From Candidatus Absconditicoccus praedator (GTDB taxonomy: Bacteria; Patescibacteriota; Gracilibacteria; Absconditabacterales; Absconditicoccaceae), in the NCBI RefSeq assembly GCF_021057185.1, contig NZ_CP054059.1, positions 90,001-122,000 of the forward strand: a DNA stretch of 32,000 nucleotides, written 5' to 3'. The notes under the pieces were generated by a model. That model saw only the letters and a program-made list of their open reading frames with translations. It was not told the origin of the DNA and made no database searches. Positions 3,067-31,701 of the stretch are shown here, piece after piece (positions within the stretch are counted from its first letter, which is position 1; the number at the start of each line of letters is the position of its first letter). The translations under genes were made by a program, and so were the position numbers.

Positions 3067-3109
3067 ATGTCAAATGAAAATTTGACATTAAAAGATATAT
3101 ATTTATAAT
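3067..3109 (+). promoter_or_regulatory. Sigma70-like promoter (TTGACA 3082-3087, 16-nt spacer, TATAAT 3104-3109) with a perfect palindrome over the -35
   Basis: ATGTCAAAT-gaaa-ATTTGACAT (3067-3088) has 9-bp perfectly complementary arms and contains the -35 hexamer. It lies ~50 nt upstream of the SD-led ORF at 3159. Confidence 0.5.
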
Positions 3110-3158
3110 ACAAGTGTCTAGCAAATTCTTTTGTGGAAAAAAATCTTGGAGGTGCGCT

Positions 3159-3545
3159 ATGAAAAACCAAAAAAACAATGTTGTTCGTTGGACTGTATGG
3201 GTTATTACAATTGTGTTTATAACTATTGCGGGAGTGTTCTTTTTAGATTTTCTATCTTTCTTTGATAGACTATTTATGACTTACTTTGATCAACACCTTG
3301 CTGAATCTAAACTTGCAACACTCATCGTCGCATTATTATGTCTTGCAATAGCTATTGCCATAGCTGCGGTGTCTGGTTTTATACTGGACAAAACCCAAGC
3401 TGACCACAAAGAAATTGACTTTAAAAACAATAGTGATGGAAGCATAACTATTAGAACTGGCAGCAAATACATTACTGCTGAAACTGGTGAAGATGGAAGC
3501 ATCACCCTTAGAACTGATAATGGCCCAGTACTTAAGGGTATCTAA
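3159..3545 (+). CDS. Small membrane protein (128 aa, about 2 TM segments) with tandem DGSIT(I/L)RT motifs; SD-led, TGA-free cassette ORF
   Basis: GGAGG at 3148-3152 sits 6 nt before the ATG at 3159 (MKNQKNNVVRW...). Hydrophobic stretches are VWVITIVFITIAGVFFL and LATLIVALLCLAIAIAIAAVSGFIL. The C-terminus has NSDGSITIRTG...EDGSITLRTD. 8 Gly, all GGN. TAA stop. GC is visibly above the backbone. Confidence 0.7.
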   Translation: MKNQKNNVVRWTVWVITIVFITIAGVFFLDFLSFFDRLFMTYFDQHLAESKLATLIVALLCLAIAIAIAAVSGFILDKTQADHKEIDFKNNSDGSITIRTGSKYITAETGEDGSITLRTDNGPVLKGI

Positions 3546-3568
3546 AGAAGAGAAAATGCTAGACACTT

Positions 3569-3618
3569 AGAACTGCTTCCAGTTCTAGAGGTGCTTGCTT
3601 ATATAGCAGCACCTTTTT
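3569..3618 (+). terminator. Double-hairpin intrinsic terminator
   Basis: AGAACTG-cttc-CAGTTCT (3569-3586), then GGTGCTTGC-ttatata-GCAGCACC (3590-3613), followed by TTTTT (3614-3618). Confidence 0.75.
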
Positions 3619-3808
3619 CTATTTGTAAGCACACTTATTTAGATAAAAAATTATTAATATAATTTTTTTATCAACTACTATAACTGGGGTAAAAATTTGA
3701 AGCATAGATTATATAGCTTTAAGTAAAAACTAGCCAATAAGGCTTGAAAAGATAAGAAAAATCATTAATAAATTAGTTAAACAATTTTAATTTATTTATT
3801 AGTTTATA

Positions 3809-5668
3809 ATGACAGAAAGTTTACTTAGATCTAGACATAGTCTTGCACATATACTTGCACAAGCAGCACAAAGAGAATTTGGTGCCAACTTGAAACTATG
3901 AGTATGACCTGCTATAGATGATGGTTGTTATTATGATATATTACCTACATCTGAAGAGATCAAAATCCAAGACAAAGATCTAAAAAACATCCAAAAATAT
4001 ATGGAACAAGTCATAAAGCAAAAACAAGAATTTCACTGTATTTCTATGGATGTTCAAACAGCCAAAGATCTAAATAATTTTTTATGACAAGAATTAAAAA
4101 ATGAACTGATAGATGAATTTGTTTCTCAATGAGAAAGTGAAATTACTTATTATATTAATTTGATACCAGCAAAAGCAAAAGATGCACTTATGAAATGAGC
4201 TAATCCTAGCTATATTTCTTACTATGAAGAAATAAACAAACATATGCATCAAAATTTCAGTTTACCAGAAGACAAGTTTGTTTGTTTCATAGATATGTGT
4301 GAATGACCACATATTGCACATACTTGAGAGCTAGATCCCAAAACTTTCAAGTTGGCAAAGATTGCTTGAGCTTATCGAAGATGAGATGAAAAAAATCCTA
4401 TGATGACTAGAGTTTATGCTTATGCATTTGCAAGCAAAGAAGAACTTCAAGAACATATAAATTTCTTGGAAGAAGCCAAAAAAAGAGACCATAGAGTTTT
4501 ATGAAAACAATTAAAATTATTTACTACTAGTGATTTGGTAGGTGCTGGATTACCATTGTTGCAGCCAAGATGAATGATTATTCGTAAGGTTATAGAAGAC
4601 TATCTTTGGGAGTTACACAAAGAAAAATGATATGAAAGAGTTTGGAGTCCACATATCGCCAAAAAAGACTTGTACGAGACTTCATGACACTGGGATAAGT
4701 TTTGAAATGAGCTTATGAAAATTGAATGAAAATATGAGGATTTTTGTGTAAAACCGATGAACTGCCCTCATCATATGCAGATATTTGCAGACAATCAATT
4801 TTCATATCGTGATTTACCAGTTAGATATTTTGAACCTGCCACTATATATAGAGATGAAAAGCCAGGTCAATTATGAGGACTTACTAGAGTAAGATCTATC
4901 ACCCAAGATGATGGACATTTATTTTGCAGAATAGATCAATTAGGCCAAGAGATAAGTACAATAGTAGATATTATCAAAACATTCTATGAAAAAATGTGAA
5001 TGATGAACGATTATTGGGTAAGTTTATCAATAAGATGAGAAGAAAAGTCTGATTATATATGAGAGGAAAATGTATGGCAAGAAGCAGAGTCTGCTTTGGA
5101 AAAGGCTGCCAATGATAAATGATTGAATTTTAAAAAAGTAGAATGAGAAGCTGCTTTTTATTGACCAAAACTGGATTTCATGTTCAAAGACTGCCTCAAT
5201 AGAGAGTGGCAACTTGCTACAATACAGCTAGATTTCAATTTACCAGAAAGATTTGAACTTGAATATACAAATGATAAATGAGAAAAAGAAAGACCAGTAG
5301 TTATTCACAGAGCCATATGCGGGTCATTAGAAAGATTTATGTGAATTATGATAGAACATTTTGCATGAGCCTTCCCTTTTTGGCTAGCTCCAGAACAAAT
5401 CAAAATTATACCAGTTGCAGATAAATTTGAGGATTATGCTCACAATATAAATCAACAATTCAAAAATCAATGAATCAGATCAAATGTAGATTCAAGTGAC
5501 GACAGTTTCAACAAGAAAATAAGAAACTGAGAAAAAGCAAAAATACCTTATCTTATAATAGTATGAGAAAAGGAAAGTAGTAATAATACTTTATCTATTA
5601 GAAGATACAGTGACAAAAAACAATATGAATCTACACTAAACGAATTTTTAAATGAAATTTCCAAATAG
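3809..5668 (+). CDS. thrS: Threonyl-tRNA synthetase (619 aa, apparently without the N-terminal TGS domain)
   Basis: 620-codon frame with many TGA=Gly. [37 protein letters not shown]; ...HRVLGKQLKLF...; [59 protein letters not shown] are class II ThrRS motifs. TAG stop at 5666-5668. Confidence 0.92.
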
Positions 5669-5741
5669 ATTTAACATCTTCACAAAACTTCATATCTACA
5701 AAAAATAATATTTAATAATATTATAGCTATAATACTGCTTA

Positions 5742-7376: not shown

Positions 7377-7541
7377 TAATAAATTTTAGCAAATAAACAC
7401 TCAAATATATACTCATAAAACAAAAAATGTAAATAGATTTTTTCTAAAAATCATTATCTATCCTAAGATTTTTATTGTACCTTGTATTAAATACGATTCT
7501 AAAAAGTATATATTGATTTTTTTTGCTTCTAAAATATAATA

Positions 7542-8429
7542 TGTAAGAAAAGGTAGCGTTGTTAAAAAATTATCAGTAATAGAACTTTTCAATAACTTCA
7601 TAAGGAGTTTTATTATCTAGTCATTTATGTGGCTTTACAGTGTTATATCGATTTACAAATCTTTTTAAAGACATTTTTCTATGTTCTGATGACTTAAAAA
7701 CTTCCTTACTGTGCCACATATCGATTAATGTTCTTATAACCCTCTCTGCTTTTCAATTTGTTCTTGGTGTTCTAACTTTTGTAAATTTTTGCTTTATTCA
7801 GCTTTTTACACACTCTTTAACAAATTCATGTTTATCATTTCATTTGTACTCAACTCAATTATCTGAGTACACACACTCAATAGTGTAAGGACATTCATCT
7901 ATTACCTGTCTAAGAAACATAGACGAAGATACTTGTGTCTTATCTTGCATTATAGCTACATAAAGTTCTCTAGAATAGTCGTCTATTCATACAAATAAGT
8001 ATTCAGACTTTTTGTTTGCTGCTCATCTTATAAGAGGTAGTTTTTTTGTGTCAAAATGCATCATTTCTCAAGGGTAGTTTTTATTGTATCTTCTAGCTTC
8101 TTTGTTTTTCTTTTCTATTATCTTAGATTCTATTTTAGCTAATCTAAGTAATCATCGCCTAATGTTTCTAAATCTATTATTGATAGAATTTCTTGGTAAA
8201 AACTCTTGAGTTCTTGCTCTCTTTATTATCTTGTATATGGTAGGCAATGATACATTGAACTTAATATGTAAATCCTTAGGCTTCATTCATCTTTTATAGT
8301 ATTCCCAGACCTCTTTTCTCTGGAGTGGTGTTAGTCTTGTATTTTTATGTATATTCATTACATAGTTTGTTATCAAATAAATAGTATTTTGTATACACAT
8401 TATTTTTAACAACGCTATATAATCTTACA
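7542..8429 (-). mobile_element. IS481-family insertion sequence (~888 bp)
   Basis: Imperfect terminal inverted repeats: left TGTAAGAaaaggTAGCGTTGTTAAAAAATTA (from 7542), and right, reverse-complemented, TGTAAGAttataTAGCGTTGTTAAAAATAAT (ending 8429). It has TG...CA ends and a single DDE transposase ORF. A possible 4-bp AATA duplication is too low-complexity to trust. Confidence 0.8.
7570..8358 (-). CDS. DDE transposase, IS481 family (262 aa)
   Basis: MNIHKNTRLTPLQRKEVWEYY...LPTIYKIIKRAR (HTH); NYPGEMMHFDTKKL (D); CVYSDNGVEYKG (D); RTPRTNGKAERVIRTL (E). All 11 Gly codons I count are TGA. Ends ...YYG (TGA) TAA. Confidence 0.85.
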
Positions 8430-8438
8430 AATAATTTT

Positions 8439-9320
8439 TTAATAACTTTCTAATGCTTTTATTCTATCTTCTATGCTTGGATGTGAATTTGTCCACCCAT
8501 TTTTAGATGATGGATTTTCTATATACATATGGTAAATACTTTTTTCTTCTAAACTTAATGAATTTTTTTCTTTTTGAATTTTTTTTAATGCAGATATCAT
8601 AGAATCTTTATCTTTGGTTAGTTCTACAGCTCAAGCATCAGCTAAAAACTCTCTACTTTTAGTTATGGCAAGCTGCACAAAAGGGAAAATTATATGGCCA
8701 ACTATCAATAAAACTGTTCATATAATGAAAAAATAAATCCCTCCTTTGTTCCCTGAACTATTATATCTCAAGCTTCTTATGATTGCTTCTCATAAGGTTT
8801 TGATAACTCATATAAAAAGAATAATTATCAAAATTAGTAAATTATCTTTATTCTTAATATGAGTTAATTCATGAGCTGCAACTGCTTGGATTTCTTTTTT
8901 TGTTAGGTTTTCTATTAGACCTCTAGTGAAGACTATCCAAGAATTTTTATCATTCCATCATATAGCAAATGCATTTAATTTATTATCTTCTATTATTCAA
9001 ATATTTGGTGTTTTGAGTCATCTTGAAATACATAAATTTTCTACTGTATTATATATAAAAGGTTCCTCTTTTCTTGTGACTTCATTAACTCAAGTGATAG
9101 AAAATATAAAATCTTTATGATAATAGAATGATACTGATCACAAAAATAATAGAACTGGTAACCATATAAGTAAATTTGTAAAAGCATGCAATATAGGGTC
9201 TGATACCACAAAAAAAAGAAGTAAATAAATTACTAAAAAAAGAATTATAGGGTATAATATGATCAAAAGAATTGTTTTGTAAGTATTTCTCCAGATACTG
9301 GTTTGTATTCAAACATACAT
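8439..9320 (-). CDS. htpX: M48-family zinc metalloprotease, HtpX-like (293 aa)
   Basis: The reverse frame from the ATG at 9320 has N-terminal TM helices (ILLIILYPIILFLVIYLLLFFVV, LLIWLPVLLFLG), NAFAIGWNDKNSWIVFTRGL, AVAAHELTHIKNKD (HExxH), REFLADAGAVELT and SHPSIEDRIKAL. The track ORF 9115..9312(-) is the +1 shadow of its N-terminus. Confidence 0.85.
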
Positions 9321-9521
9321 ATATTTGACTTTTTTGCTAAAAGTTAGTTGTAAATTATAAACTTTTTAAAATTTTTTTCAAATTTCTATAATTATTATTT
9401 ATGCTTACTGTTTATAGGTTTCAAATGTGTTTGTAAGAAACCTTAAATACATTTCCTGTATAATTTACTTTCTCTTGAAAAAGACAATTTTGTCATTAAT
9501 AAAAGGATGCAATCCATCAAT

Positions 9522-9684
9522 AGAGGAGGAGCAGAAATGTTCTGGCCGAACAATGATGGTTGAGCTCAGATACATGAGCAGTTAGAGGGAGTTCAATACA
9601 CTCAACAGAGGAGGAGTTGCCGTGTATCCTGATAATAAGGGGTAACACGGTCGCCGGGGTTAGAATCTAGCCCCGGCTTTTTTT
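9522..9684 (+). ncRNA. GC-rich structured transcript with two identical super-SD boxes, two mini-ORFs and a double-hairpin terminator (function unknown)
   Basis: AGAGGAGGAG occurs at 9522-9531 and again at 9607-9616. ATG at 9537 (MFWPNNDG then TGA at 9561) and GTG at 9622 (MYPDNKG then TAA at 9643). Hairpins: GCTCA..TGAGC, CCGTGT(9620)..ACACGG(9650), GCCGGGG(9653)..CCCCGGC(9677), followed by TTTTTTT. GC is far above the flanks. Confidence 0.4.
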
Positions 9685-9871
9685 ATTAAGTATACAATTG
9701 ATATCTTTTCAAAATATCAAAACATAAAACAAATTTTCTCAAAAATAAACTCAAACAAGATTTTTAACAATTTCAACAAAATAGTCAATTTTATAAATTT
9801 AGCTTGAAAAAACTTGTAAACTGTTTATCTTATATTATAATAAGCTAATTTTATACACTTTCACAACAAAG

Positions 9872-12220
9872 ATGCAATTTTCTGAAGCTGATACCAAAGC
9901 CAAATTCATAGACCCAAAACTCAAAGAATCAGCACGAGATGAAGCCAATATCATCAGAGAAGAATATTTTACCACTTGAAGAAAATTTGGAGCCAATACC
10001 AGATGAACTCCTGGATATGTAGACTATCTTCTCAAATACAAAAACAAAAACTTAGCAATAATAGAAGCCAAAAAATCTGAAGAATCTCCCACCAAATGAC
10101 TAGAACAAGCCAAAACCTACTGACAAAAACTTCAAGTAAGATTTGTATATTCTACCAACTGATACGAAATATACGAATTTGACCTAAAACTATGAAAATG
10201 AGATTTTGTAGATAGCTTTCCATCTCCAGAAGAATTATTCCAAAAAATTATTTGAAAAACCAACCATCTCAAAGAAAAGCTGTTAAGTACAGCCTACAGT
10301 ATAGAATGAAATGTCAAACCAAGATACTACCAAGAAAATGCTATCAACAAAGTACTTGAATCCATAGCAGACGGCAACCAAAGAATTCTTCTAACTCTTG
10401 CCACAGGTACCTGAAAAACATTTATAGCTTTTCAGATAGTTTGGAAACTGTTTCAAGCCAGATGGAACAACAAATCCAATTCACAAAGACCCAAAATCTT
10501 GTTTCTTGCAGACAGAAATATTTTGGTAGATCAAGCAATGAACACTTTCAATCCATTGGAAAAAGATATGATCAAGATTGACTGAAGCGAAATCAAAAGA
10601 AGATGATGAAAAGTACCTACCAATGCCAATATATTTTTTGCTATATATCAAGCAATCAGCGACAAAGAAAATATATGATGATACTACAAAGAATATCCTT
10701 CGGATTTTTTTGATTTGGTGATAATAGATGAATGTCATAGGTGATGAGCCAACGAAGAATGAACTTGGCATGAGATACTTCAGCATTTTTCTCCTGCTGT
10801 ACACCTGGGACTTACTGCCACTCCCAAAAGGCAGGACAATATAGATACTTATAATTATTTTGGTGAGCCTGTATATGAATACTCACTCAAAGAAGGGATC
10901 AACGATGGTTTCCTAACTCCCTACAAAGTCAAAAGAATCCAGACCAATCTAGATGAGTTTGTGCTAAATTCTGGAGACAAAATTTTGAAATGAGAATCTA
11001 CAAAATCTGTTTATGATATACAAGACCACGAAAGAAATATAATAATCCACGAAAGAACAGATCTAATAGCTCAAGCAATACTACAAAATATAAATCCTTA
11101 TGAAAAAACTATTGTTTTTTGTGTAGACCAAGATCATGCTCTAAGGCTCAGGGATGCTATCAACAAATACAAATCCAACAATGAAAAAGATTACTGTGTC
11201 AGAGTCACTTCTGATGAATGAGTAGAATGAAAACAATACTTAGAAAGATTCCAAGACAACGACAAAACTTTGCCTGTGATTTTGACTACTTCTCAGATGT
11301 TAACTACTGGAGTAGATGCCAAAAATGTCAGAAATATAGTTTTGCTGAAGCAAATAGGTTCTATGGTAGAATTCAAGCAGATAATATGAAGGTGAACCAG
11401 GCTTTTTGAGTGAAAAGATTATTTCAATATTATAGATTTTGTAGGAGCTACCAACAATTTTTATGATGAAGCCTGGGATGGTGAACCAGCTGCACCTGTC
11501 AAAAAATCCAAACTACAGCTTGGAGAAGATGAAGAGCAGTTAGAAGAAGTCTTGGAAGATTATCAAGAATCAGCAGAAAATCAAAATGAAAGTAATGATT
11601 ATGAGTTTTCTTCTCAGGATCAAGACCTGCCCAAAGAGAAGTTGGAAGTAGAGCTTGGAGACGACAGGACTGTCAAAATCATAAACATAGAAGAAAGATT
11701 TATTGATGAGAATTGAAAGCCACTAAGTGCAGAAGATTTTTTGCAAAAGATAGTGGGAAATATACCTCATCTATATCAAGATATAGATCAACTAAGGCAG
11801 GCTTGGGCTGATCCAGAAAGTAGAGAAGCTTTGTTACAAAAGCTTTATGATATGTGAATAGACAGAGAACAACTCCAAAATCTAAGGAAAATGTTTGAAG
11901 CTGATGGAGTGGATGTTTTTGATATATTGGCTTATATATCTTTCAATGTGGATATGAAAAAGAGGAAGGAAAGGGCTGATTATGTCAGGGAAAATACTGG
12001 TATATTGGAAAAGTATGAAAGTTCTAAGGCTAAGGAGTTTTTGGAATTTTTGTTAGAACAGTATGAAGCCAATGGTATTTTTGAGTTCAAAAGTCATAAT
12101 CTAAAAGCTATGATAGATTTGTATCATTCTACTCCTACGGAGTTGTCCAAGGCTTTTGGTGGGGCTGATAGGTTGAGAGAGGCTTATTTTGAGTTGCAGA
12201 AGGATATTTATGAATTGTAG
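9872..12220 (+). CDS. hsdR: Type I restriction enzyme R subunit (782 aa)
   Basis: MQFSEADTKAKFIDPKL (HsdR N-terminal nuclease region), LLTLATGTGKTFIAFQ (Walker A, with G encoded by TGA), DLVIIDECHRG (DEAH), HLGLTATP, TSQMLTTGVDAKNV, QIIGRGTR. The C-terminal EcoEI-R-like tail is track ORF 11891..12220. Confidence 0.92.
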
Positions 12221-12371
12221 AAAATTATTACTTTTTTAATAAGGTTGAACTCTATAAAATTAGGGATTTATTCTAGGAATTTAGTTTTGAGTGATTTTTA
12301 ATACAGTGAATTATTGACAGGAATTGAATGTTGATTACATATAGTATAATTTATTTTTTAAAATTAACAAT

Positions 12372-12878
12372 ATGTGAAATTATGCCTTTATAGACTGACA
12401 AAATCTATACTTATGAACAAGTAGTGAATGATGGAATTTTGATTTAGAAAAGCTTAGAACATATCTTAAGGATAAATACAAAGTTACCAAGGCTTATTAT
12501 TTTTTGTGATATGTACAGGATGAAAATAATTCACTTTATACTAAATTGCAAGAGTCGGGTTTTATAGTGGTATTTAAAAAACAGATGGTAAATATGACTA
12601 CTGCCAAAAAGTGAAATATAGATAGTGATATGATATTTTGGGTGATGCAAAAACTAATAGAAGAACCAGAAAAATTTGAGCAAATAGTAATAGTATCAGG
12701 AGATTGAGATTTCAAGATATTAGTTGATTACTTGATAAGAAAATGAAGGCTCAAAAAAATATTATTCCCAAATAAAAAATATGCTTCTTCTTTGTATAAT
12801 GATCTTTTGAATGAATATTTTGCTTATATGAAGGATATTAGACCCAAAATTGAGTATAAAAAAAGAGAAGGTACCTAA
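12372..12878 (+). CDS. NYN-domain (LabA/DUF88-like) putative ribonuclease (168 aa)
   Basis: MGNYAFIDGQNLYLG...KAYYFLGYV...GFIVVFK...KGNIDSDMIFWVM...IVIVSGDGDFKILVDYLIRKGRLKKILFP follows the NYN/LabA pattern (IDGxN...D...SGDGDF). 7 in-frame TGA. TAA at 12876-12878. Confidence 0.8.
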
Positions 12879-13008
12879 AGCACCAACACTTTTCGGATCC
12901 CTTCTCGTCTTGATACATTTATATTATAATCAGTTTTTTCAAAAATTCAAGTTTTTGATAAAAAAATTATTTACTTTGTTTCTGTGGTATGTTTGGATTA
13001 AGAAAAAA

Positions 13009-13035
13009 AGGTTTGAAATTTGCTTCAAACCTTTT
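13009..13035 (+). terminator. Intrinsic terminator-like hairpin downstream of the NYN gene
   Basis: AGGTTTGAA-atttgc-TTCAAACCT followed by TTT. A second GC-rich hairpin, CTCCATCGC-ttttg-GCGATGGGAG (13057-13080), follows. Confidence 0.55.
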
Positions 13036-13206
13036 ATATTATAGTTATTAATTTATCTCCATCGCTTTTGGCGATGGGAGGATCCCGGAGGACATTATGA
13101 ATATATGTTAATTAAAATTTTTTAGAATTCAAATAAATCTATGAAAAATAACATAATTAGATTCTAATATAGAAAGAGGTAATTTATTCTTATTATATTT
13201 TAAATA

Positions 13207-15177
13207 ATGCAATATAACTCTTTTAGGAAAATACTTAAATTAATTTTTTTACATCTTTTACCGTCAATTATATTTTATTATATTTGGAAAATTTTTGATT
13301 TTCTTAAAATTAAATTTAAACCTTATAAGGCAATTTTAAATAAATTATCTCTTTTTTTATTGTATGTTTTATTTACAACATTTTTAGCTTTATTGTCTAT
13401 TCTAATTTACAATAACTATATACTTTCAAATGAATTAGATATTATTAATTATCATGATTTATTGATACTACTATTTTTTTTTCTTTTATTCTTATTTTTA
13501 AGAAATGCTGAAACTATATTAGATTATACTCATAGTAAAATTAAAATAATTTCTTCTTTAATTTTATTTCTATTTTTATTTTTTAATATAGAGGAAATAT
13601 ATGCGATATGATTAGGTCAGTTTTTAACTGCAATTTTTTTTTACTGACTATTCTTTATTATAGTTTTTAATGTTTCTTGAGTAAAATCATATAATAATTG
13701 ATTATTAGTAAAATCATATAAGATAGAAAATAGAAGTTTTGATCAATTCTTTGATACATATTTAAATTTATTAAACGAAAAATGAAATTTTATAAATCCA
13801 ATTTTTGATGAACCAATATCAATTGATAATGATGATATATTTTGAATTAATGATATCGTCCAAAATTTATACAATATAATTTTGTGAATAGACTTCAACA
13901 ATCAAAAAGGTTCATATAGTATATGAATAGTAGGTGAATGGTGAAGCTGAAAAAGTAGTATTATAAATTATCTAAAAGATAAATATTTATTTTGATCACC
14001 AACAATTAAAACACTAGAATTTAATCCTTGGAATTATGAAAAGGATGACTTAATAAATAAGTTTTTCACTGAATTGTCTATTGTGCTTTGAAAATCAACC
14101 AATTTGAATAGTAGTATAAAAAAGTATTTAAAGGCATTGTGAGAATTACATAGTTCATTTAATGCTATTAATAGCTTGATTTCAAGCAAGTCTATTAATG
14201 AGATAAAAAAAGATTTGAATAATGAATTAAATAACTCATGAAAGAAAATTATTGTGATAATTGATGACTTAGATAGATGTGATCCATATGAAATTCTATT
14301 AATGCTAAATTTAATAAAAAACTTATGAGATCTGAAAAATATAATATATTTAGTTTCTTACGATAAAGGGAATATAACTAAAGTTCTTGATGATAAGGGG
14401 TTTGATTGAAATTATATAGAAAAGATTATAAATATAGAAAGGTTTGTTCCTGTTTTCACACAAGAACAAAAAAAGAAATATTTTAAAAATGAACTTAAAA
14501 ATATTCTTTGAAAATTATTTTTTAATAAAATTATTTTACCATTAAATTTTGATAAATGGTTTGAAAGTCTATATGTTCAAGATGTGTATATTTCTAAAAA
14601 GGCAAATGCTGAAATTAGAGAAAAATGGCAATTAGCTAAAAGAGAACCTTATTATTTTTTTAAGTATTTAGATGAATTTAATTCTATAGTTAATATTAAT
14701 TTACCTAAAACACTTTTAAACTATAAAAAATTATATTTAAATAAGCCTGAAAAAATAGTCAATACACTATTAAATGAGTTTGATAAAATGCTTGAAGTAG
14801 AAAATCTTAGATTTATAAAAAAATTATTAAATCAATTAAATATTGTTTTGCAGTTAAATTTGAGTAATAATACTAATATGATTCTTGATTTTCATGATGA
14901 AGATTATAAAAAAATTATTGCTATAAATTATTTTAAATTAAAAAATTATTCAAAATTTAACTATGTGATAGATAAATTTATACTAAAAGAAGTTTGAAAA
15001 TTAGTTGATGATAAAAAAATAAAAAGAATTAAAGATGATGATTTTCTTATCAATAAAGATATATATAATGAATATTTTTTAAACAATATATTAAATATTA
15101 GCAAAATGGATCAGTCTAATTTAAGATATACAACTATAAGTGATAAAGATTTTAAAATTATAAAAGAGTTTTCATAA
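13207..15177 (+). CDS. KAP-family P-loop NTPase with an N-terminal multi-TM domain (656 aa); Tmn-like
   Basis: About 5 hydrophobic helices in the first ~160 aa. Then IGIVGEWGSGKSSIINYL (Walker A, both invariant Gly encoded by TGA), LEFNPWNY and KKIIVIIDDLDRCDPYEILLMLNLIK (KAP Walker B). Joins track ORFs 13207..13611 and 14584..14997. Extremely AT-rich. TAA TAA stop. Confidence 0.85.
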
Positions 15178-15223
15178 TAATAAAAAGTAATTATACATTT
15201 ACTATAAATAACCTACAAACCCA

Positions 15224-16390
15224 ATGCAAAACCTACCTGAATGATGGGAAATAAAAAAACTTTGAGATATAGCAACTTTTACAAATTGATTTGCATTTAA
15301 AAGTAGCTTATTTAAGGATGAATGAAAACCAATTTTAAGAATAGCTAATATAAAAGAGAACTGAATTTCTTTTAAAAATCTTGTATATTTTAATGATGAA
15401 GATTATTCACAAGATTTGTCGAATTATAAAGTTTTTCCTTGAGATTTAGTAATAGCAATGTCTTGAGCTACTACTGGGAAACTTACTATAAACAACACAG
15501 ATAAAACCTTTTATTTAAATCAAAGAGTTTGAAAAATTTGATTTGATAATGAAATTACTAAACAATACATTTATTCTTTTTTAAAAACTAAAATAGAATA
15601 CAATCTTAATCGTTCATCTTGATCAGCCATACCCAATTTAAGTACACAACAAATAAAAAATACTGAAATCCCACTCCCACCTCTCGAAACTCAAAAGCAA
15701 ATAGCAGCCAAACTTGATGAAGTGCTGGGAGATATTGACCAGTCTATCCAACTAATCCAACAAAACATAGCCCACATAGATGAAATGAGCAAATCTGTCT
15801 TGAATCAAGTTTTTGAAGAAAAATGGGAAATAAAAAAACTTTGAGATATAGTAAATTTTTCTCAATGACTTCAAGTTCCTATAAAAGAACAAAAATATGA
15901 TTGAAATTATAGATTTTTAAGAATAATTGATTTTACACAATGAAATCAGGAACCTAGGTTTATAGAGAAATATGATGAGAGAGCTTTTGTAAAAGAAACA
16001 GATATTTCTATGGTTAGATATTGAGCATCTACTTGATTTATATGTACTTGAAAAAAATGAATTATAGCAAATAATTTATTTAAGATTACTGCAACTATAG
16101 ATAGTCTTAATAAAAAATATTTGTATTTTTATTTTTTATCAGATTTTTTTAAAAATTACCTTTTTCTAAATGTATATTGAGCAGCAATGCCAGCTATTAA
16201 ATTTTCAACTATTAGCGAATTAGATATCCCACTTCCACCTCTATCCAAACAACAAGAAATAGTTGATTATCTAGACAATATTTTCCAAACCAACGAACAA
16301 CTCAAAAATCAATACCAACAAAAACTTGCCAATCTACAAGAACTCAAAAAATCTGTCCTAAACTCTGCTTTTGAAGGGAAACTGGTTTAA
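15224..16390 (+). CDS. hsdS: Type I R-M specificity subunit with two target-recognition domains (388 aa)
   Basis: LPEGWEIKKLGDIATFTNGFAFKS (TRD1 start) and EEKWEIKKLGDIVNFSQG (TRD2 start). Conserved helices IPLPPLETQKQIAAKLDEVL and IPLPPLSKQQEIVDYLDNIF. C-terminus SVLNSAFEGKLV. Confidence 0.9.
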
Positions 16391-16412
16391 TTATAAGTTT
16401 GATGAAAATTCA

Positions 16413-16985
16413 ATGAGCAAATCTATCAAAAAAGCTGTTTATCTAATATTCTTGGCTATATTTATACTTCTTTTATATTTGGTATACACAATCTGACCTG
16501 CTCAAATTGTTGATTTTATCTGACTAGAAAATACATACCTTGTAATTTTCTTTTTTGCTTTTGTATGATGAGTATTTTTCCTAACTGCAGCTACATTTTA
16601 TACAACATTAGCAACTTTTGTTGTATGATGAGCAGATTTGCTTACTTTGTCGCTAATATCAGCAATATGACTAACAATTGGTGATTTCTTCTTTTATTTT
16701 TTGGGGAGGAAAGCAAAATTATTTATAAATGATAGCAAATACAAATCAAAAGTTGAAAAATTTTCCAACTGGATAAGAGCCAAATCTGATAAAACAATTT
16801 TTTGGTTTTTGCTGCTTTATTGGAGTTTTGCCCCATTGCCAAATGATATACCATCATCATGATTATGAATTGCTTGATACAACTGGAAAAAAATGATACT
16901 TCCAATTTTTGTGTGAAATATTAATTATAATTTGCTGATATGAAGCCTGGCAATGTTTGGATACAGTATATATTGAGTACTCTAA
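16413..16985 (+). CDS. DedA/SNARE-associated (VTT-domain) family membrane protein (190 aa)
   Basis: Polytopic hydrophobic protein with the diagnostic LTIGDFFFYFLGRK motif and ...FAPLPNDIPSSGLGIAGY. 14 or more in-frame TGA. Confidence 0.7.
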
Positions 16986-17016
16986 AAGGTCTTTACAGGT
17001 AATTTAATGGGGTGTC

Positions 17017-17200
17017 CCCCTTCAAACATCCAACGAATGTTTAAGGGGATCCCTTCAAATCCCTAAGTTACCGCGCGGAGTTGAAGGTATGGACCACCCC
17101 TAAATTATCGCGCGGAGTTGAGGGTGTGCGGCATCCCTAAGTTATCGCGCGAAGTTTGAGGTATGCTGCATCCTTCAAATATTCAATGAACATTTGAGGG
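17017..17200. repeat. GC-rich repeat element: three tandem 37-bp units flanked by two homologous hairpins
   Basis: Units are 17061-17097, 17098-17134 and 17135-17171 (CCCTAAGTTACCGCGCGGAGTTGAAGGTATGGACCAC and variants). The left hairpin is CCTTCAAACAT..ATGTTTAAGG (17017-17048). The right hairpin is CCTTCAAAT..ATTTGAGGG (17172-17200). A truncated unit (CCTAAATTA) follows. Confidence 0.8.
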
Positions 17201-17234
17201 AGCTACCTAAATTAATAAAAACATAATCATAAAG

Positions 17235-17302
17235 ATTTCCAACCCACATATTAATATTGAAAAAAATATCCAAAGATATATTATATCAAATAAGTTTAGC
17301 TT
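17235..17302 (+). repeat. Copy 1 of a duplicated ~68-bp promoter-like segment (upstream of the 17317 gene)
   Basis: ATTTCCAACCCACATATTAATATTGAAAAAAATATCCAAAGATATATTATATCAAATAAGTTTAGCTT is near-identical to 18222-18290 and contains TTGAAA-N17-TATATT. Confidence 0.75.
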
Positions 17303-17316
17303 GTCATAACAAAGAA

Positions 17317-17886
17317 ATGACAAAAAAAGATAAATTGGCTATATATCAAAATGATAATTGAGAAATAAAAGTTAATTTTGATGAAAATCAAGAAACTTTT
17401 TTATGACTTGATAGTACTTGATGGACATCCCTGAGTGCCATAGCTATATTTTTATCTGTATTAGCATCTTTATTTATTTCTATTTGTTTAGAACCACTAA
17501 AAAATAGTTTTAAGAAAAAAAGGATTTTAAAAGTCTTAGAAAGTAACTTAGACAAAAATATTGAAATTTTGAAAAAAATAAAAGAATTTGATTTGTATGA
17601 AATTACTAGAAATCAAAAAGAAGAAGAACAAGAAAAATTAAAGAAATTTGTTTATAGTATAAACTTTGAATCTTGGGAATTAAATAAAAGTTTTTTATCT
17701 ATAACAAGCCCACAGGAATTTGATAAATATAATAATATACATATTAAATTAAGTAATATAAAAAATGAATTTTGTGAACTAGAAAACATCAATAGATATT
17801 GGTATACTAAAAATGTTGAAAAGATAATAAGTAAGTTTAATTATACTAAAAATAATATAAAAAAGTTCTTAGAGGAATACGAATAA
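17317..17886 (+). CDS. Hypothetical membrane-anchored coiled-coil protein (189 aa)
   Basis: MTKKDKLAIYQNDNGEIKVNFDENQETFLGLD..., one TM segment (LSAIAIFLSVLASLFISICL), then a Lys/Glu-rich helical region. Extends track ORF 17569..17886 upstream through 3 TGA codons. Confidence 0.55.
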
Positions 17887-18221
17887 ATACAATGCTATAC
17901 TATATTTATTTAAAAAATTTGAATAGGTATATTTCTAACTTTTAAATCATTATTAATATCTTCTAATTCAATTAGTTCCAAAATGACACTAGTTTAAAAA
18001 AAGCAATGTGCAAAAAATGCACATACCACTAAATTGAGCCTGGTTAATAAAATCAGCAAAACTATTTCCAAACAAACTCAAACTTAGAAACAGTTTGTAA
18101 TAGTAAGTAGATTTCAAAATCTTTAAACTTGTCACGATTTACAAAACAACATTGTCCGTGACAAAAGCTAATATAAGTTTTGAATTGATTTTTCTAAAAA
18201 ATATCAAATTGGACCGTGACA

Positions 18222-18290
18222 ATTTCCAAACCCCAATATTAATATTGAAAAAAAAATCCAAAGATATATTATATCAAATAAGTTTAGTTT
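18222..18290 (+). repeat. Copy 2 of the duplicated promoter-like segment (upstream of hsdM)
   Basis: ATTTCCAAACCCCAATATTAATATTGAAAAAAAAATCCAAAGATATATTATATCAAATAAGTTTAGTTT. See 17235-17302. Confidence 0.75.
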
Positions 18291-18380
18291 ATAAAAAATC
18301 ACTTATTTCATATTTTGCAACAACTGTCATTTGTACTATAAATCATTATGTTAAACCAATTTACCAAATAATCATACCCA

Positions 18381-19826
18381 ATGCAACAACAAATAAACAG
18401 AATTACAGATATTCTCCGTAGAGACGACTGAATCTCTTGAGCTATGCACTATACAGAACAAATATCCTGGATTCTTTTTCTGAAATTTATAGATGATTAT
18501 GAAAAAGAAAATTATGAATGAGCCTTGCTTGATGGCAAAGATTATGAATTTATACTAGACCCAAAGTTTAGACGAGATAATCGAGCCTGTCCCAAGACCA
18601 AAGACCACAAACTTGATGTGAACAATGCTCTTACCTGAGATGATCTCAAAGATTTCGTAAACAATGAGCTTTTCCCTTATCTTCAATCTTTCAAAGATAC
18701 CAGTAAAGATTACAATACTATGAAATACAAAATAGGTGAAATCTACTATTTCATAGACAACAGGATAGAAAGCTGACACACTATCAGAGAGATTTTGGAT
18801 ATAGTAGACTGACTCAGTTTTCAAAGCGAAAAAGATCTTTTTGAGCTTAGTAAAATATATGAAGACTTGCTTCAGTGAATGGGTAGCGATGGTTGAAATT
18901 CAGGTGAGTTTTATACTCCAAGACCTGTAATAAAAGCTATGACAGATACTATCAACCCCAAGATTGGGCAAACTATTTATGATGGAGCCAGTGGTAGTTG
19001 TTGATTTTTGATAGAAGCTTTTGAAAACCTAAAAAAACAAGAAAAAACAACTGATGACTACTATTTCCTAAGGAATAAAACCTTTTATGGAAACGAAAAG
19101 ACACCAATAGCTTATATTATGGGTATGATGAATATGATACTTCATTGAATTTCCAACCCAAACCTAAGCAAGCAAAACAGCCTCACCCAAGATGTAAGAT
19201 CTATTGAAGAAAAAGACAGATACGATATTATCCTTGCCAATCCACCTTTTGGATGAAAAGAAAAGGAACAAATTCAAGCTAATTTCCCTATCAAAACCAA
19301 CTCTACTGAAATGCTATTTCTCCAACATTTTATGAAAAAACTCAAAACTTGATGAAAAGCTGCTATAATTGTCCCAGAATGAGTTTTGTTTAATACCTCA
19401 CAACCTTTCCAAAAAATTAAACAAGAACTTATAGAAAATTATAATCTACATACTATTTGTAGTTTGCCTGCAGGAGTGTTTTTGCCTTATTCTGGAGTAA
19501 AAACAAATATTATATATTTTGACAAACAGTGAACTACCAAGGATATACGATATTATGAAATAAATCCTTGAAGAAATCTTACCAAGAATTCCCCTTTGAA
19601 ATACGAAGAAATCCAAGAATTTATAGATCTTTTTGATAGCAGGAAAGAAACAGAAAATTCATGGATAGCTCCAGTAGAAGATATCAAAGACTATGATATA
19701 TCAGCCAAAAATCCTCACAAAAATAAACCAGAAGAATACAGAACTCCTCAAGAAATACTAGAAAATATTGAAAATAATGACCAAAAAATCAATGAATTAA
19801 CCAATAGACTAAAAGAAGCTATCTAA
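18381..19826 (+). CDS. hsdM: Type I R-M DNA methyltransferase subunit (N6-adenine), 481 aa
   Basis: ITDILRRDDGISGAMHYTEQISWILFLKF (HsdM N-terminus), GEFYTPRPV, IYDGASGSCGFL (AdoMet motif I), ILANPPFGGKE (motif IV), STEMLFLQHFM, AAIIVPEGVLF. Confidence 0.92.
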
Positions 19827-19854
19827 AGTTTTAGCAAACTTAATTTTATACAAA

Positions 19855-19913
19855 GAAAAAAGCGCTAGCAGTATAAGCAAGCACCTTCTAACCCAGAATT
19901 GAATACAATTCTG
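19855..19913 (-). terminator. Double-hairpin terminator module, homologous to 3569-3618
   Basis: On the reverse strand: CAGAATTG-tatt-CAATTCTG, then GGTGCTTGCTTATActgctagcgc, then TTTTTT. It shares GGTGCTTGCTTATA and the trailing TTTTTCT.TTTGTA with the 3.6-kb copy. Confidence 0.65.
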
Positions 19914-19915
19914 AG

Positions 19916-29023: not shown

Positions 29024-29100
29024 ACTTTTGTTTGTAAATATTGTTGAAAAAAAAAGAAAAAATATTATAGTTTCTTTATTTAAGAATTTAAGTTTAGTAT

Positions 29101-31365
29101 ATGCCAACAAAAACTAAAGCTTCCACAACAAAAAAGTCTACTAAATCTACCACCTCAAAAACCACAACTTCTAAAAAATCCACAAAACCATCAAAATGAA
29201 AAAATCTTGTGATTGTGGAATCTCCTGCAAAATCCAACACAATAAAAAAATTTCTATGAAATGAATGGGCAGTAGAGGCTAGTATGTGACATGTAGTGGA
29301 TTTGCCCAAAAAATGATTTTGAGTAGATATAGACAACAATTTCAAGCCAGAGTATGAAACAATGCCCGACAAGAAAAAAACAGTTAATAATCTTAAAAAA
29401 CTTGTTAAAAGTTATGAAAAAATATGGATAGCAACAGATGAAGATCGTGAATGAGAAGCTATATGATGGCATTTGATAAATGTTTTAAATCTAAAAAAAG
29501 AAGATACTCCAAGAATAGTGTTCCATGAGATAACAAAAGATGCGATTCAAGAGGCTGTCAAAAATCCTAGGACAATAGATGAAAATTTGGTAAGTAGTCA
29601 GCAAGCAAGAAGAATTCTTGATAGGTTAGTATGATTTAAAATTTCTCCAGTTCTTTGGAGTAAAGTAAAAAGATGACTTAGTGCGGGTAGAGTTCAGTCT
29701 GTTGCAGTAAAGTTGATTGTAGAAAAAGAAAGAGAAATCCAAAACTTCAAACCTGAAGAGTCTTGGTCTGTTTTGTGATTGTTTAGTTATAATAAACAGG
29801 AATTCAAAGCAACTCTTGAGAAAATAAACTGAAAAAAAATATCTCTCAAAAAACAATCTGATTTACAAAAAATTTTTGATGAGATTTGATTGACCAAGAA
29901 GCCAAAAGAATCTTCAGAAGAAAAAACTTGAAATAAAATAATATATTTTGATGAAAAAATTCCTTTTCAAATAATACAACTAAAAAAATCAACTAGTAAA
30001 AGGTCTGCTTCTGCTCCTTTTATAACTTCAACATTACAGCAAGAAGCTAGTAATAAGCTTTGATGGTGAGTAAAGCAGGTAATGTCAGTTGCTCAAAAGT
30101 TGTATGAAAATTGATATATAACATACATGAGAACGGATAGTTTGAATTTGTCGTCTTGATTTATCAACTCTGCATGATCATATATTAAAAAAAATTACTG
30201 AAAAGAGTTTGTTCAAACCAAAAACTATAAAACAAAATCAAAATGAGCGCAAGAAGCCCATGAAGCAATAAGGCCTACAGATATAAATAAAACCCCAAAA
30301 AATGTTGGGCTTTCTGGGAATGAAGCAAAGTTGTATACATTGATATGGACAAGAAGTTTAGCTACTCAAATGGCAGATGCAAAGCTTGAAAATCTTACAT
30401 TGAAAATGACTGTGAAATGAAAAAATCATGAATGGTCTGCCAAAGGTCAGACAATAAAGTTTTTGGGTTTTATGCAAGTTTGGCAGGATGTTTTTGGAAA
30501 GATTCCGATGCAAGAAAATATTTTGCCACCTTTACAAAAAGATCAAGAAATTGAGTCGGACAAAATTTTGTCAAATCAGCATTTTACAAAACCACCAGCA
30601 AGATACACAGAGGCTACTTTGGTGAAAAAACTTGAAAGTGAGTGAATTTGAAGACCTTCTACATATGCACCAACAATAAGTACAATAATAGATAGAGGTT
30701 ATGTAGAAAAAAAAGATGACAAAAAACTTCATCCTACAGATATAGCATTTTTGGTGAATGATTTTTTGGAGTCAAACTTTAAAAGCTTGATGGATTACAA
30801 TTTTACAGCAAAAATGGAAGACAAGCTTGATAAAATTTCAGAATGAAAGCAAGACTGGGAAAAGATGTTGAAAGAATTTTGGAAAGATTTTGAAAAAGAT
30901 TTGCAAGCATCAGATAAAAGCGAAAAAGCTAAAATGTATGTATGAGAAAAATGTCCTAAATGTTGATGAGATTTGGTGTATAAGTTTTGAAAAACAGGTA
31001 AGTTTATAGGTTGTGATAATTATCCTGACTGTAAATATGTTACAAACACCAAAGAAGAACAAGATTATATCCAACAACTAAAAGATAAATATGAATGAAA
31101 ACCTTGTCCAGAATGAGGTAATATAGTGGTAAAAGTATGAAGATATTGACCGTTTTTGGCTTCGGATAAGTATCCTGAAGTAAAGTGGATATGAAAAATA
31201 CCAGATGAGAAAACAGAGAAATTGCAGGAACAATTTGGCTGAGAAACTTGTGATAAATGTGGAGAATGAAAAATGGTTGTGAAAAAATGAAGAAGATGAC
31301 CATTTTTGGCTTGTGATAAATATCCAGACTGCAAAAATGCCAAACCTATTCCTAAGAAAAAATAA
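29101..31365 (+). CDS. topA: DNA topoisomerase I (754 aa) with a Ser/Thr/Lys-rich N-terminal tail and three C-terminal zinc ribbons
   Basis: [19 protein letters not shown] (Toprim), [57 protein letters not shown] (catalytic Tyr), and the CPKCGG...[14 protein letters not shown]..., CDKCGEG...CDKYPDCK fingers. Confidence 0.92.
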
Positions 31366-31410
31366 TTTTTTGATATTTGACAAAATAAAAAAGATGGTTA
31401 TAAATAGTAT

Positions 31411-31435
31411 GCTGGTAGTTTTGCCAGCGTTTTTT
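31411..31435 (+). terminator. Terminator-like hairpin after topA
   Basis: GCTGG-tagttttg-CCAGC followed by gTTTTTT, ~45 nt after the topA TAA. It is overlapped upstream by TTGACA(31377)-N16-TATAAA. Confidence 0.55.
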
Positions 31436-31451
31436 ATAAAAAGGAGAATAT

Positions 31452-31655
31452 ATGCACAAAGTCCAGACTGTCCAGACTGAACGGGCTGCAAACTCTATCA
31501 TTACTGGCAGAGAGGTTATGAGACTCCAAAGCGAAGATGACTTTTGGAGACTTGTAGATGAACGTAGGGGAAATGAGGATGTAATTCCTCTCAGCCCCTT
31601 AGCTATAGAGTGTGCGGCCAAGAAGGGATGGTTGAAGACACCTGAGGTGTTATAA
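31452..31655 (+). CDS. Small hypothetical soluble protein (67 aa); SD-led, TGA-free, GC-elevated cassette ORF
   Basis: AAGGAG sits 6 nt before the ATG at 31452. MHKVQTVQTERAANSIITGREVMRLQSEDDFWRLVDERRGNEDVIPLSPLAIECAAKKGWLKTPEVL. TAA stop, then a double-hairpin terminator. Confidence 0.55.
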   Translation: MHKVQTVQTERAANSIITGREVMRLQSEDDFWRLVDERRGNEDVIPLSPLAIECAAKKGWLKTPEVL

Positions 31656-31701
31656 CACTTCAGGTATCCACCTTGGAGTTTACTCCAAGGTGGTCTTTTT
31701 T
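31639..31701 (+). terminator. Double-hairpin intrinsic terminator
   Basis: ACACCTGAGGTG-ttataa-CACTTCAGGT, then CCACCTTGGAG-ttta-CTCCAAGGTGG (11 bp perfect), followed by TCTTTTTT. Confidence 0.75.

Follow-up and report, generated by a model that had tools for sequence, protein, structure and literature searches.

Among the described systems closest to the one presented here are the phage morons, a concept of Hendrix and Juhala that designates autonomous promoter-gene-terminator units inserted between conserved genes. Small units of comparable build, named A to H below, are found in a 32-kb window (the whole stretch of DNA that was analysed) of the chromosome of Candidatus Absconditicoccus praedator, with a GC content of 29% and genetic code 25, in which TGA stands for glycine. 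Like morons, these units have, as predicted from the sequence, their own sigma-70-type promoter and intrinsic terminator and a composition unlike that of their neighbours; they also lie between conserved genes and encode mostly small membrane proteins or proteins of unknown function, one of which (unit D) matches the phage family phrog_2169. Unlike morons, they are chromosomal and not part of a prophage, since their neighbours are thrS, htpX, hsdRMS, umuDC, and topA, and one weak membrane-protein PHROG is the sole phage family matched. Besides, they are set apart by genetic code and translation initiation, and not just by GC content. These cassettes are probably horizontally acquired standard-code genes that have been kept as stand-alone, moron-like transcription units.

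Two further points of comparison come from the same bacterial group. Ca. A. praedator has been cultured and preys on Halorhodospira halophila (PMC11452946). Horizontal gene transfer (HGT) into Absconditabacteria predators is already established: 126 HGT genes were reported in Vampirococcus lugosii, for which a ComEC-based uptake of host DNA was proposed (PMC8080830). In both cases, a member of the Absconditabacteria preys on a purple sulfur bacterium, and foreign genes compensate for, or add to, its reduced genome. They differ in that one donor is here the prey's own genus, and in that the imports still carry a full standard-code expression syntax, namely a Shine-Dalgarno (SD) sequence, a TGA stop and a terminator. 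In addition, code-11-compatible phages, which have no in-frame TGA and can be read with the standard code, have been linked to Absconditabacteria, infection of these and of Gracilibacteria being a prediction (Liu et al. 2023, PMC10746230).

The genes of the window fall into two classes, and this dichotomy is real and far above chance. Open reading frames (ORFs) are short under the standard code, and long genes appear once TGA is taken as a sense codon. These long code-25 genes, hereafter the backbone, comprise those of a tyrosine recombinase, a transposase and a LysM-SLT protein, together with thrS, htpX, hsdR, NYN, KAP, hsdS, DedA, hsdM, umuDC, yjjX, and topA, and reading TGA as glycine gives sensible proteins, such as a KAP with the P-loop WGSGKS. 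When SD strength is expressed as the duplex energy between the 20 nt before the start codon and ACCUCCUUA, the 18 backbone genes considered (two of which have start coordinates off by a few nucleotides) range from +1.8 to -1.2 kcal/mol. By comparison, the six intact cassette ORFs, which start at 3159, 20402, 21050, 22467(-), 23083(-), and 31452, range from -6.8 to -12.2 kcal/mol (Fisher p = 7e-6 versus backbone), and all units have a strong and well-spaced SD, the weakest being a 4-nt GGAG. Among the six-frame ORFs that begin with ATG and have at least 50 codons, ten reach -6.5 kcal/mol, of which six are the cassettes and four are internal or antisense ATGs. In the same line, TGA accounts for 271 of the 388 glycine codons (70%) in 15 backbone genes and for none of the 66 in the cassettes, nor for any of the 35 left when dapD (unit F) is set aside (p = 2e-17). 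A non-circular test is provided by the three TAA-terminated units, since their ORF definition is independent of TGA, and none of their 18 glycine codons is TGA (p = 1e-9). When GGA and TGA alone are compared, the counts are 11:0 for the cassettes and 41:271 for the backbone (p = 7e-10). As TGA-free runs of 100-137 codons are present inside glycine-poor backbone genes, e.g. KAP, the valid test is the one limited to glycine codons; and as TGA use is normal in htpX, hyp157, and DedA, which are membrane proteins of native origin, the avoidance of TGA is not a membrane-protein effect. Finally, GC is 0.36-0.59 in the cassettes against 0.19-0.34 in the backbone, GC at third codon positions (GC3) is 0.28-0.73 against 0.13-0.29, and the strongest terminators of the window, made of a hairpin and a T-run, all lie 3' of cassettes. 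Most of what an earlier note on this DNA had read from the letters is thereby borne out: its SD boxes are all present where it placed them, the backbone is TGA-rich and has no SD (18 of 18 genes no better than -1.2 kcal/mol), and the raised GC and the GC-rich hairpin terminators of the cassettes were correctly noticed. The frequency of SD-led, TGA-free ORFs, on which that note let its idea stand or fall, is far above chance within the window.

Regarding the stop codons, the ORFs at 20402 and 21050 and dapD end with TGA, and the other three intact ORFs with TAA. Under code 25, these TGA-terminated ORFs are extended by 22, 64, and 95 codons, respectively, and terminator hairpins lie about 6-22 nt past the TGA, with energies of -21.7 (20402), -24.9 (21050), and -20.4 kcal/mol (dapD). 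This succession of a TGA directly followed by a terminator indicates that the three transcription units are framed for the standard code. The claim that cassettes have zero in-frame TGA is therefore valid under the standard code, but not in code 25, where three of the ORFs pass through their stop. The six ORFs thus resemble the code-11-compatible phages in having no in-frame TGA when read with the standard code. In those phages, however, TGA stops are backed by nearby TAA or TAG codons (PMC10746230), which is not so for three of the six units given the extensions just mentioned; the three units with a TAA stop do share the feature that both codes give the same product. Moreover, the integrated prophages of that study are all TGA-rich (PMC10746230), whereas the units are single genes without phage hallmarks.

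The donor can be named for unit F (21578..22531, minus strand), which consists of a promoter (TTGACA at 22531-22526, a 16-nt spacer, and TATAAG), an SD (GGAGG, 22476-22472), the dapD ORF (22467-21625; 280 amino acids, 59% GC, TGA stop), and a terminator made of a hairpin and a T-run (21608-21584). The product is a full-length match to the TIGR00965 equivalog (464 bits for a cut-off of 375, residues 13-279 of 280) and also matches PF14805, PF00132, and PF14602, i.e. the THDPS N-terminal domain and hexapeptide repeats. It is 88-89% identical in amino acids to DapD of the H. halophila type, the nearest named relatives being H. halophila (88%), H. abdelmalekii, and H. halochloris, and in a neighbour-joining tree it nests within Halorhodospira as sister to the H. 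halophila/P0004/P0006 group. The top three DapD matches, which are longer, are not code-25 read-through calls but internally duplicated mis-assemblies. At the nucleotide level, an identity of 83% with the H. halophila gene extends over 22422-21625, starting near codon 16 and ending precisely with the TGA stop. The protein begins with MIADV, similar to MAADI in the closest relative, and this start is followed in the window copy by an insertion of seven residues (21 nt), and the first ~100 nt of the gene are AT-shifted. In the donor genomes, dapD lies within a dapC-dapD-dapE operon of 67% GC, in which the dapD stop codon and the start of dapE overlap; since the donor gene is operon-internal and the homology stops at the TGA, the promoter and terminator seen in the window are not donor DNA. 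As for the leader, AGGGAG..agcATG in the donor corresponds to TGGAGG..agcATG in the window, which makes the arrival of the SD together with dapD ambiguous. Judged by this phylogenetic placement, dapD is a gene acquired from the prey's genus.

The history of dapD after its transfer can be followed in its substitutions. The pairwise dN/dS (ratio of nonsynonymous to synonymous rates) is 0.08 for the whole gene and drops to 0.04 when the first 40 codons are excluded. When the changes on its own branch are scored at sites where four Halorhodospira-clade genes agree, 28 are synonymous and 13 nonsynonymous, nine of the latter being in the first 34 codons; among these 41 changes, 31 are GC>AT, 3 are AT>GC, and none is G>T. 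In addition, only two changes affect columns that are invariant in 11 relatives, and GC3 is 0.73 compared to 0.81-0.96 in the Halorhodospira-clade genes. The GC>AT bias of its own branch and its low dN/dS show that dapD has resided in this AT-rich genome for long enough to drift, while being kept functional under purifying selection. The lack of TGA in dapD was also considered as a sign of selection, and rejected given that only 2 of its 31 glycine codons are GGA and that no G>T change occurred on the branch.

The same data bear on the eventuality of an artefact, in which the GC-rich block would stem from prey DNA joined to the predator contig by mis-assembly, or the small ORFs would have arisen by chance. 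The culture is indeed a predator-prey co-culture and, going by accession numbering, the deposited annotation seems to contain no protein between hsdM and UFX82626.1. More precisely, the proteins of units A and G are the deposited Ca. A. praedator hypotheticals UFX82614.1 and UFX82626.1, and this span corresponds to exactly the eleven backbone genes in between; this accession numbering suggests that units C to F, including dapD, are without a protein in the public annotation. Nevertheless, dapD differs from the H. halophila gene at 17% of its nucleotides, has GC>AT changes in a proportion of 31:3, and carries a 21-nt insertion near its 5' end. Its flanks have 14-20% GC on both sides, with promoter and terminator in the correct orientation, and the left junction, between the terminator and the 3' end of dapD, recurs in a Logan assembly that matches positions 18258-21838 with 100% identity. 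As for chance ORFs, the combination of SD, ATG and long ORF is far above random expectation. An artefact is accordingly hardly credible.

The other intact units encode ORFans. Unit A (3082..3618, plus strand) has a promoter with TTGACA (3082), a 16-nt spacer and TATAAT (3104), an SD GGAGG at 3148, an ORF (c3159; 3159-3545) for a protein of 128 amino acids with two transmembrane (TM) segments and a TAA stop, and a terminator made of a double hairpin and a T-run (3567-3613). Near it, at 3068-3087, divergent -35 boxes form the inverted repeat TGTCAAAT-gaaa-ATTTGACA, which could double as an operator. Unit D (20324..20752, plus strand) combines TTGACA (20324), 16 nt and TATAAA with an SD GAGGAGG at 20390, an ORF (c20402; 20402-20713) for a multi-TM protein of 103 amino acids that ends with TGA, and a terminator at ~20720-20749 (-21.7 kcal/mol, z = -5.1), while no structure was found 3' of its code-25 TAA (z = +0.55). 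Its product matches the membrane protein family phrog_2169 (E = 1e-7), assigned to the category 'moron, auxiliary metabolic gene and host takeover', and the profile ends at residue 103, right at the TGA. Unit E (20985..21562, plus strand) has TTGACA (20985), 16 nt and TATATT, an SD GGAGG at 21040, an ORF (c21050; 21050-21511) for a soluble protein of 153 amino acids with a TGA stop, and a terminator (21530-21555) with a hairpin and T7; the AlphaFold2 model of this protein reaches a pLDDT (predicted local distance difference test) of 39, below use for a fold search. Unit G (22745..23147, minus strand) has TTGACT (23147-23142), 17 nt and TATAAG, an SD GGAG (23093-23090), an ORF (c23083; 23083-22790) for 97 amino acids with two to three TM segments and a TAA stop, and a terminator at 22776-22750. 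Finally, unit H (31377..31700, plus strand) has TTGACA (31377), 16 nt and TATAAA, an SD AGGAG at 31442, an ORF (c31452; 31452-31655) for a soluble protein of 67 amino acids with 47% GC and a TAA stop, and a terminator at 31668-31693; a hairpin at 31409-31430, between its promoter and its SD, is likely the topA terminator. Among the seven protein units, four thus encode membrane proteins with two to four TM segments, two encode soluble proteins (c21050 and c31452), and one encodes an enzyme, DapD, so that the idea that most cassettes encode small membrane proteins fits four of the seven and not the other three. With regard to type I toxin-antitoxin toxins, which are hydrophobic, usually have fewer than 60 amino acids and come with an overlapping antisense RNA, the membrane proteins of the units have 97-128 amino acids and two to four TM segments, and no family was matched in Pfam, NCBIfam, or PADLOC. 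Compared to integron cassettes, the units are likewise small, mostly of unknown function and foreign in composition, and a tyrosine recombinase gene (1679-2860) adjoins unit A; however, integron cassettes are promoterless and have attC sites, whereas the units have a promoter and a terminator and are in mixed orientation. Besides the terminators, neither a recombination site nor an imperfect inverted repeat was found to be shared by the units.

Database searches gave little for these proteins. No homologue of c21050 was found in 5.8e9 protein clusters; the sole match of c20402 in the same collection was its own DNA in a Logan assembly; and c3159 found, among 1.84e9 representative proteins, only its own deposited protein and the Logan copy of the same gene. 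Neither c23083 nor c31452 had a match in phage, plasmid, and IMG/VR collections, where alone they were searched apart from family profiles. Comparison of the ORFans with Pfam, NCBIfam, PHROGs, and PADLOC returned nothing significant except phrog_2169 for unit D. With respect to codon usage, the ORFans have less ATA, GTA, TTA, and AGA than the backbone, and more ATC, TAC, GTG, GAG, CGN, and CCG. Since this shift concerns C- and G-ending codons alike, it is a compositional signature and not a pattern of translational selection. The foreign origin of the ORFan units would thus be read from their composition, SD and TGA syntax, with a donor that is assumed. An alternative would be a native origin of these small, lineage-specific proteins, perhaps by de novo birth, their deviating composition being due to chance or to amino-acid content: searches of large protein collections gave no homologue for three of the five intact ORFans, and a de novo origin of genes has been proposed for Absconditabacteria (PMC8080830). 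However, birth from intergenic DNA of 20-25% GC would not yield a raised GC with CGN, GTG, and TAC codons, nor zero TGA in 35 glycine codons. Moreover, TGA use is normal in native membrane proteins, and the foreign dapD has an identical architecture. Such a native origin therefore seems improbable.

Two units depart from this scheme, and the number of SD-led gene units, about eight according to the earlier note, has to be reduced to the six intact ORFs. Unit B (9475..9685, plus strand) has a promoter (TTGAAA at 9475, a 16-nt spacer, and TAATAA) and a terminator (9653-9677), between which two AGAGGAGGAG boxes, at 9522 and 9607, precede ORFs of only 8 and 7 codons. Its transcript of ~180 nt has a minimum free energy of -66 kcal/mol (z = -5.3 versus shuffled sequences), and comparison with Rfam gave no family, the best match being Spot_42 with E = 0.39. 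Unit B is probably a structured ~180-nt RNA and not a protein gene. It also contains two copies of CAA[T/C]AGAGGAGGAG and more GGA/GGGA motifs; that it could act as a sponge by titrating a GGA-binding factor is no more than a guess. In unit C (19855..20306, minus strand), the promoter box TTGACA (20306-20301) and an SD AGGAG (20232-20228), listed earlier as the SD-led start 20226(-), lead to an ATG at 20219 that opens an ORF of only 18 codons, while another frame holds a 67-amino-acid membrane ORF (20119-19916), followed by a double-hairpin terminator (19913-19857). The two ORFs join only by a 1-nt shift in the A7 run of AACAAAAAAAGA (20163-20219, minus strand), which could mean that the gene is frameshifted and decaying, that the homopolymer was misread in sequencing, or that slippage takes place there. 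An exact 15-nt core, AGGTGCTTGCTTATA, is common to the terminators of units A (3589-3618) and C (19857-19886), where it lies within about 30 similar bases, and a second hairpin precedes it in both; the two terminators may have a common origin or represent a reused module, the resemblance being statistically weak. Between units C and D, the divergent -35 boxes (20301-20329) form an inverted repeat, TGTCAA-N17-TTGACA.

The promoters of the cassettes consist of an A-tract, TTGAC(A/T), a spacer of ~16 nt, and TATAAx, a type that they have in common with the backbone genes LysM-SLT and NYN (AAAAAATATTGAC). Over the window, the total of promoter-like matches is at chance level. Near-consensus promoters are therefore present on the units, as had been claimed, but they had to be rejected as a marker of the class, given that native genes carry the same type and that the scan total is that expected by chance. 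Transcription of the units in the predator is most likely, given that their promoters are of its native type. In this context, the cassettes might instead form a dedicated expression class, in which the ribosome would still be SD-capable and a few genes, foreign or native, would be kept SD-led, TGA-free and individually terminated; the gain would be a strong or conditional translation of GC-richer mRNAs, the bulk of the genes starting on unstructured A/T leaders. The optimal spacing of the strong SD in every unit speaks for this, as do the native-type promoters, the flanks of dapD that are not donor DNA, the SD of dapD (GGAGG), which is closer to consensus than the AGGGAG of the donor, and the purifying selection on dapD, which implies expression somewhere. 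Nevertheless, none of the 18 backbone genes has an SD, and a TGA followed by a terminator is senseless for genes tuned to a code-25 ribosome. In two complete Absconditabacteria genomes, SD sequences precede 2-7% of the genes and the 16S tails, AATCACCTTTGTACA and GACCACCACCCTAAA, have no CCUCC anti-SD (PMC10783764); if the 16S tail is also without CCUCC here, the SD boxes would be fossils and, by the criterion of the earlier note, a dedicated class would be disfavoured. Besides, hsdR and hsdM, in which TGA makes up 55% of the glycine codons compared to 63-100% in the other backbone genes checked, have no SD. It may be that both were imported earlier, again from a standard-code donor, and are further along the same path of decay, which suggests that an SD is not maintained. 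Taken together, these points make a dedicated expression class rather unlikely.

Another option raised in the earlier note is that the genes are meant to work in a standard-code cell. In Agrobacterium, the T-DNA is a case where the donor genome carries genes with the expression signals of the recipient. Units, or their transcripts, reaching the prey during the attack, or travelling on an element that shuttles between predator and prey, would be a bacterial equivalent of T-DNA, and Halorhodospira would be the cell in which dapD and the small membrane proteins exert their function. The likeness is limited to the formal logic, by which the expression syntax fits another cell better than the carrier; unlike T-DNA, the units have no border repeats, no transfer machinery, and no clustering, and their promoters fit the carrier. 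Their sigma-70 promoters, canonical SD, TGA stops, and intrinsic terminators would all be readable in Halorhodospira, the dapD of prey type is under purifying selection with an unconverted TGA stop, and code-11-compatible phages have been linked to hosts from both inside and outside the candidate phyla radiation (CPR) (PMC10746230). However, the units are spread over 28 kb, neither borders nor relaxase or phage genes lie close to them, their promoters are like those of native genes, and unit C is frameshifted. In addition, one retained TGA stop is statistically uninformative, and a dapD of prey type expressed in the prey brings no evident benefit. Besides, no mechanism is known by which a CPR predator would transfer DNA or RNA to the cells it preys on. 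A function in the prey cell is thus very improbable: positive evidence for it was not found, the units being scattered, with promoters of native type and no adjoining transfer apparatus. What can be retained from the idea of a host or prey involvement is the prey lineage as a donor, not the prey as the place of action.

The preferred explanation remains the acquisition of standard-code genes, and the foreign origin that was first proposed for the cassettes is upheld by dapD nested in Halorhodospira, by the compositional shift of the ORFans, and by three TGA stops followed by a terminator. According to this scenario, DNA would be taken up via ComEC and type IV pili, as proposed for a predator of this group (PMC8080830), the donors being the prey lineage for dapD and possibly an unsampled mobilome for the other units. 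Fragments that landed behind a usable promoter and proved useful would have been kept, and the flanking donor DNA lost. The units occupy gaps that separate conserved genes, as well as an accretion zone of 3.3 kb (19.85-23.15 kb) that follows the type I restriction-modification (RM) locus. The SD, the TGA stop, GGN glycine codons, the higher GC, and the shifted codon usage would then be donor legacies that decay slowly. In the predator, the TGA-terminated ORFs would be read through to give longer proteins, or stop-less mRNAs if the terminators work. The frameshift in unit C is what is expected for dispensable arrivals, and was counted in favour of the acquisition scenario.

Several observations nonetheless weigh against this scenario. 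No homologue of c3159, c20402, and c21050 was found in the ~15 billion proteins of large collections. The promoter and terminator of dapD look native, with AAAAAATATTGAC in common with LysM-SLT, and at least these flanks must therefore have been built or recruited in the predator. The origin of the dapD SD is ambiguous, its GGAGG being nearer to consensus than the sequence of the donor, and the SDs of the units are more uniform than random donors would give, which hints at a selection for the SD. Moreover, the TGA stop of dapD has been kept despite many GC>AT changes, the conversion of TGA to TAA needing a single G>A. Finally, a lone dapD has no obvious use in such a genome.

Other features of the window deserve mention. 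No tRNA, rRNA or Rfam family was found within its 32 kb, and a metagenome scan with LysM-SLT for syntenic relatives gave no match. The type I RM locus (9872-19826) is split up, with hsdR, NYN, KAP NTPase, hsdS, DedA, repeats, hyp209, and hsdM in succession. In the AT-rich gap after DedA, at 17059-17182, a GC-rich repeat of 37 nt, ATCCCTAAGTTACCGCGCGGAGTTGAAGGTATGGACC, occurs in three head-to-tail copies that are 78-80% alike. A direct repeat of 74 nt (88% identity) lies at 17236-17309 and 18224-18297, on either side of hyp209, an ORF of 21% GC that separates hsdS/DedA from hsdM and looks like an insertion accompanied by a duplication of the hsdM upstream region. In the gap between NYN and KAP, a hairpin CCATCGC...GCGATGG is followed by two GGAGG and a 4-codon ORF (13045-13100), just downstream of a bidirectional-looking terminator (13006-13035); this segment may be the remnant of another unit. 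Between hyp544 and htpX, a transposase-like ORF (7570-8412, minus strand; 7530-8441 in all) contains 11 TGA codons, which indicates the native code, and is flanked by inverted repeats of 39 nt that are 82% complementary, thereby resembling an insertion sequence element.

The reassignment of UGA has been argued to isolate Absconditabacteria and Gracilibacteria genetically, or to garble the DNA they import (PMC8080830). Against this background, purifying selection preserves, in a cultured predator, a gene from the lineage of its prey that has retained the standard-code form of its TGA stop, SD, and terminator. What is new compared to the HGT already described is a donor from the prey's genus in a cultured pair, an intact standard-code syntax, and a constraint after transfer, although dapD itself may have been described earlier. 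The combination of an SD, a near-zero share of TGA among glycine codons, and a TGA followed by a terminator could provide a phylogeny-free marker of recent imports in recoded genomes, and the TGA share of glycine codons may serve as a rough residence clock. Units in standard code are easily missed or mis-called when annotation is done with code 25. In addition, the fate of a standard-code gene in a code-25 cell, be it glycine read-through, a non-stop mRNA and its rescue, or a tolerated C-terminal extension, becomes a question that can be asked in the existing predator-prey co-culture. As probable recent horizontal acquisitions kept as autonomous units, the cassettes would thus offer a means of examining how genes written in the standard code are dealt with by a recoded cell.

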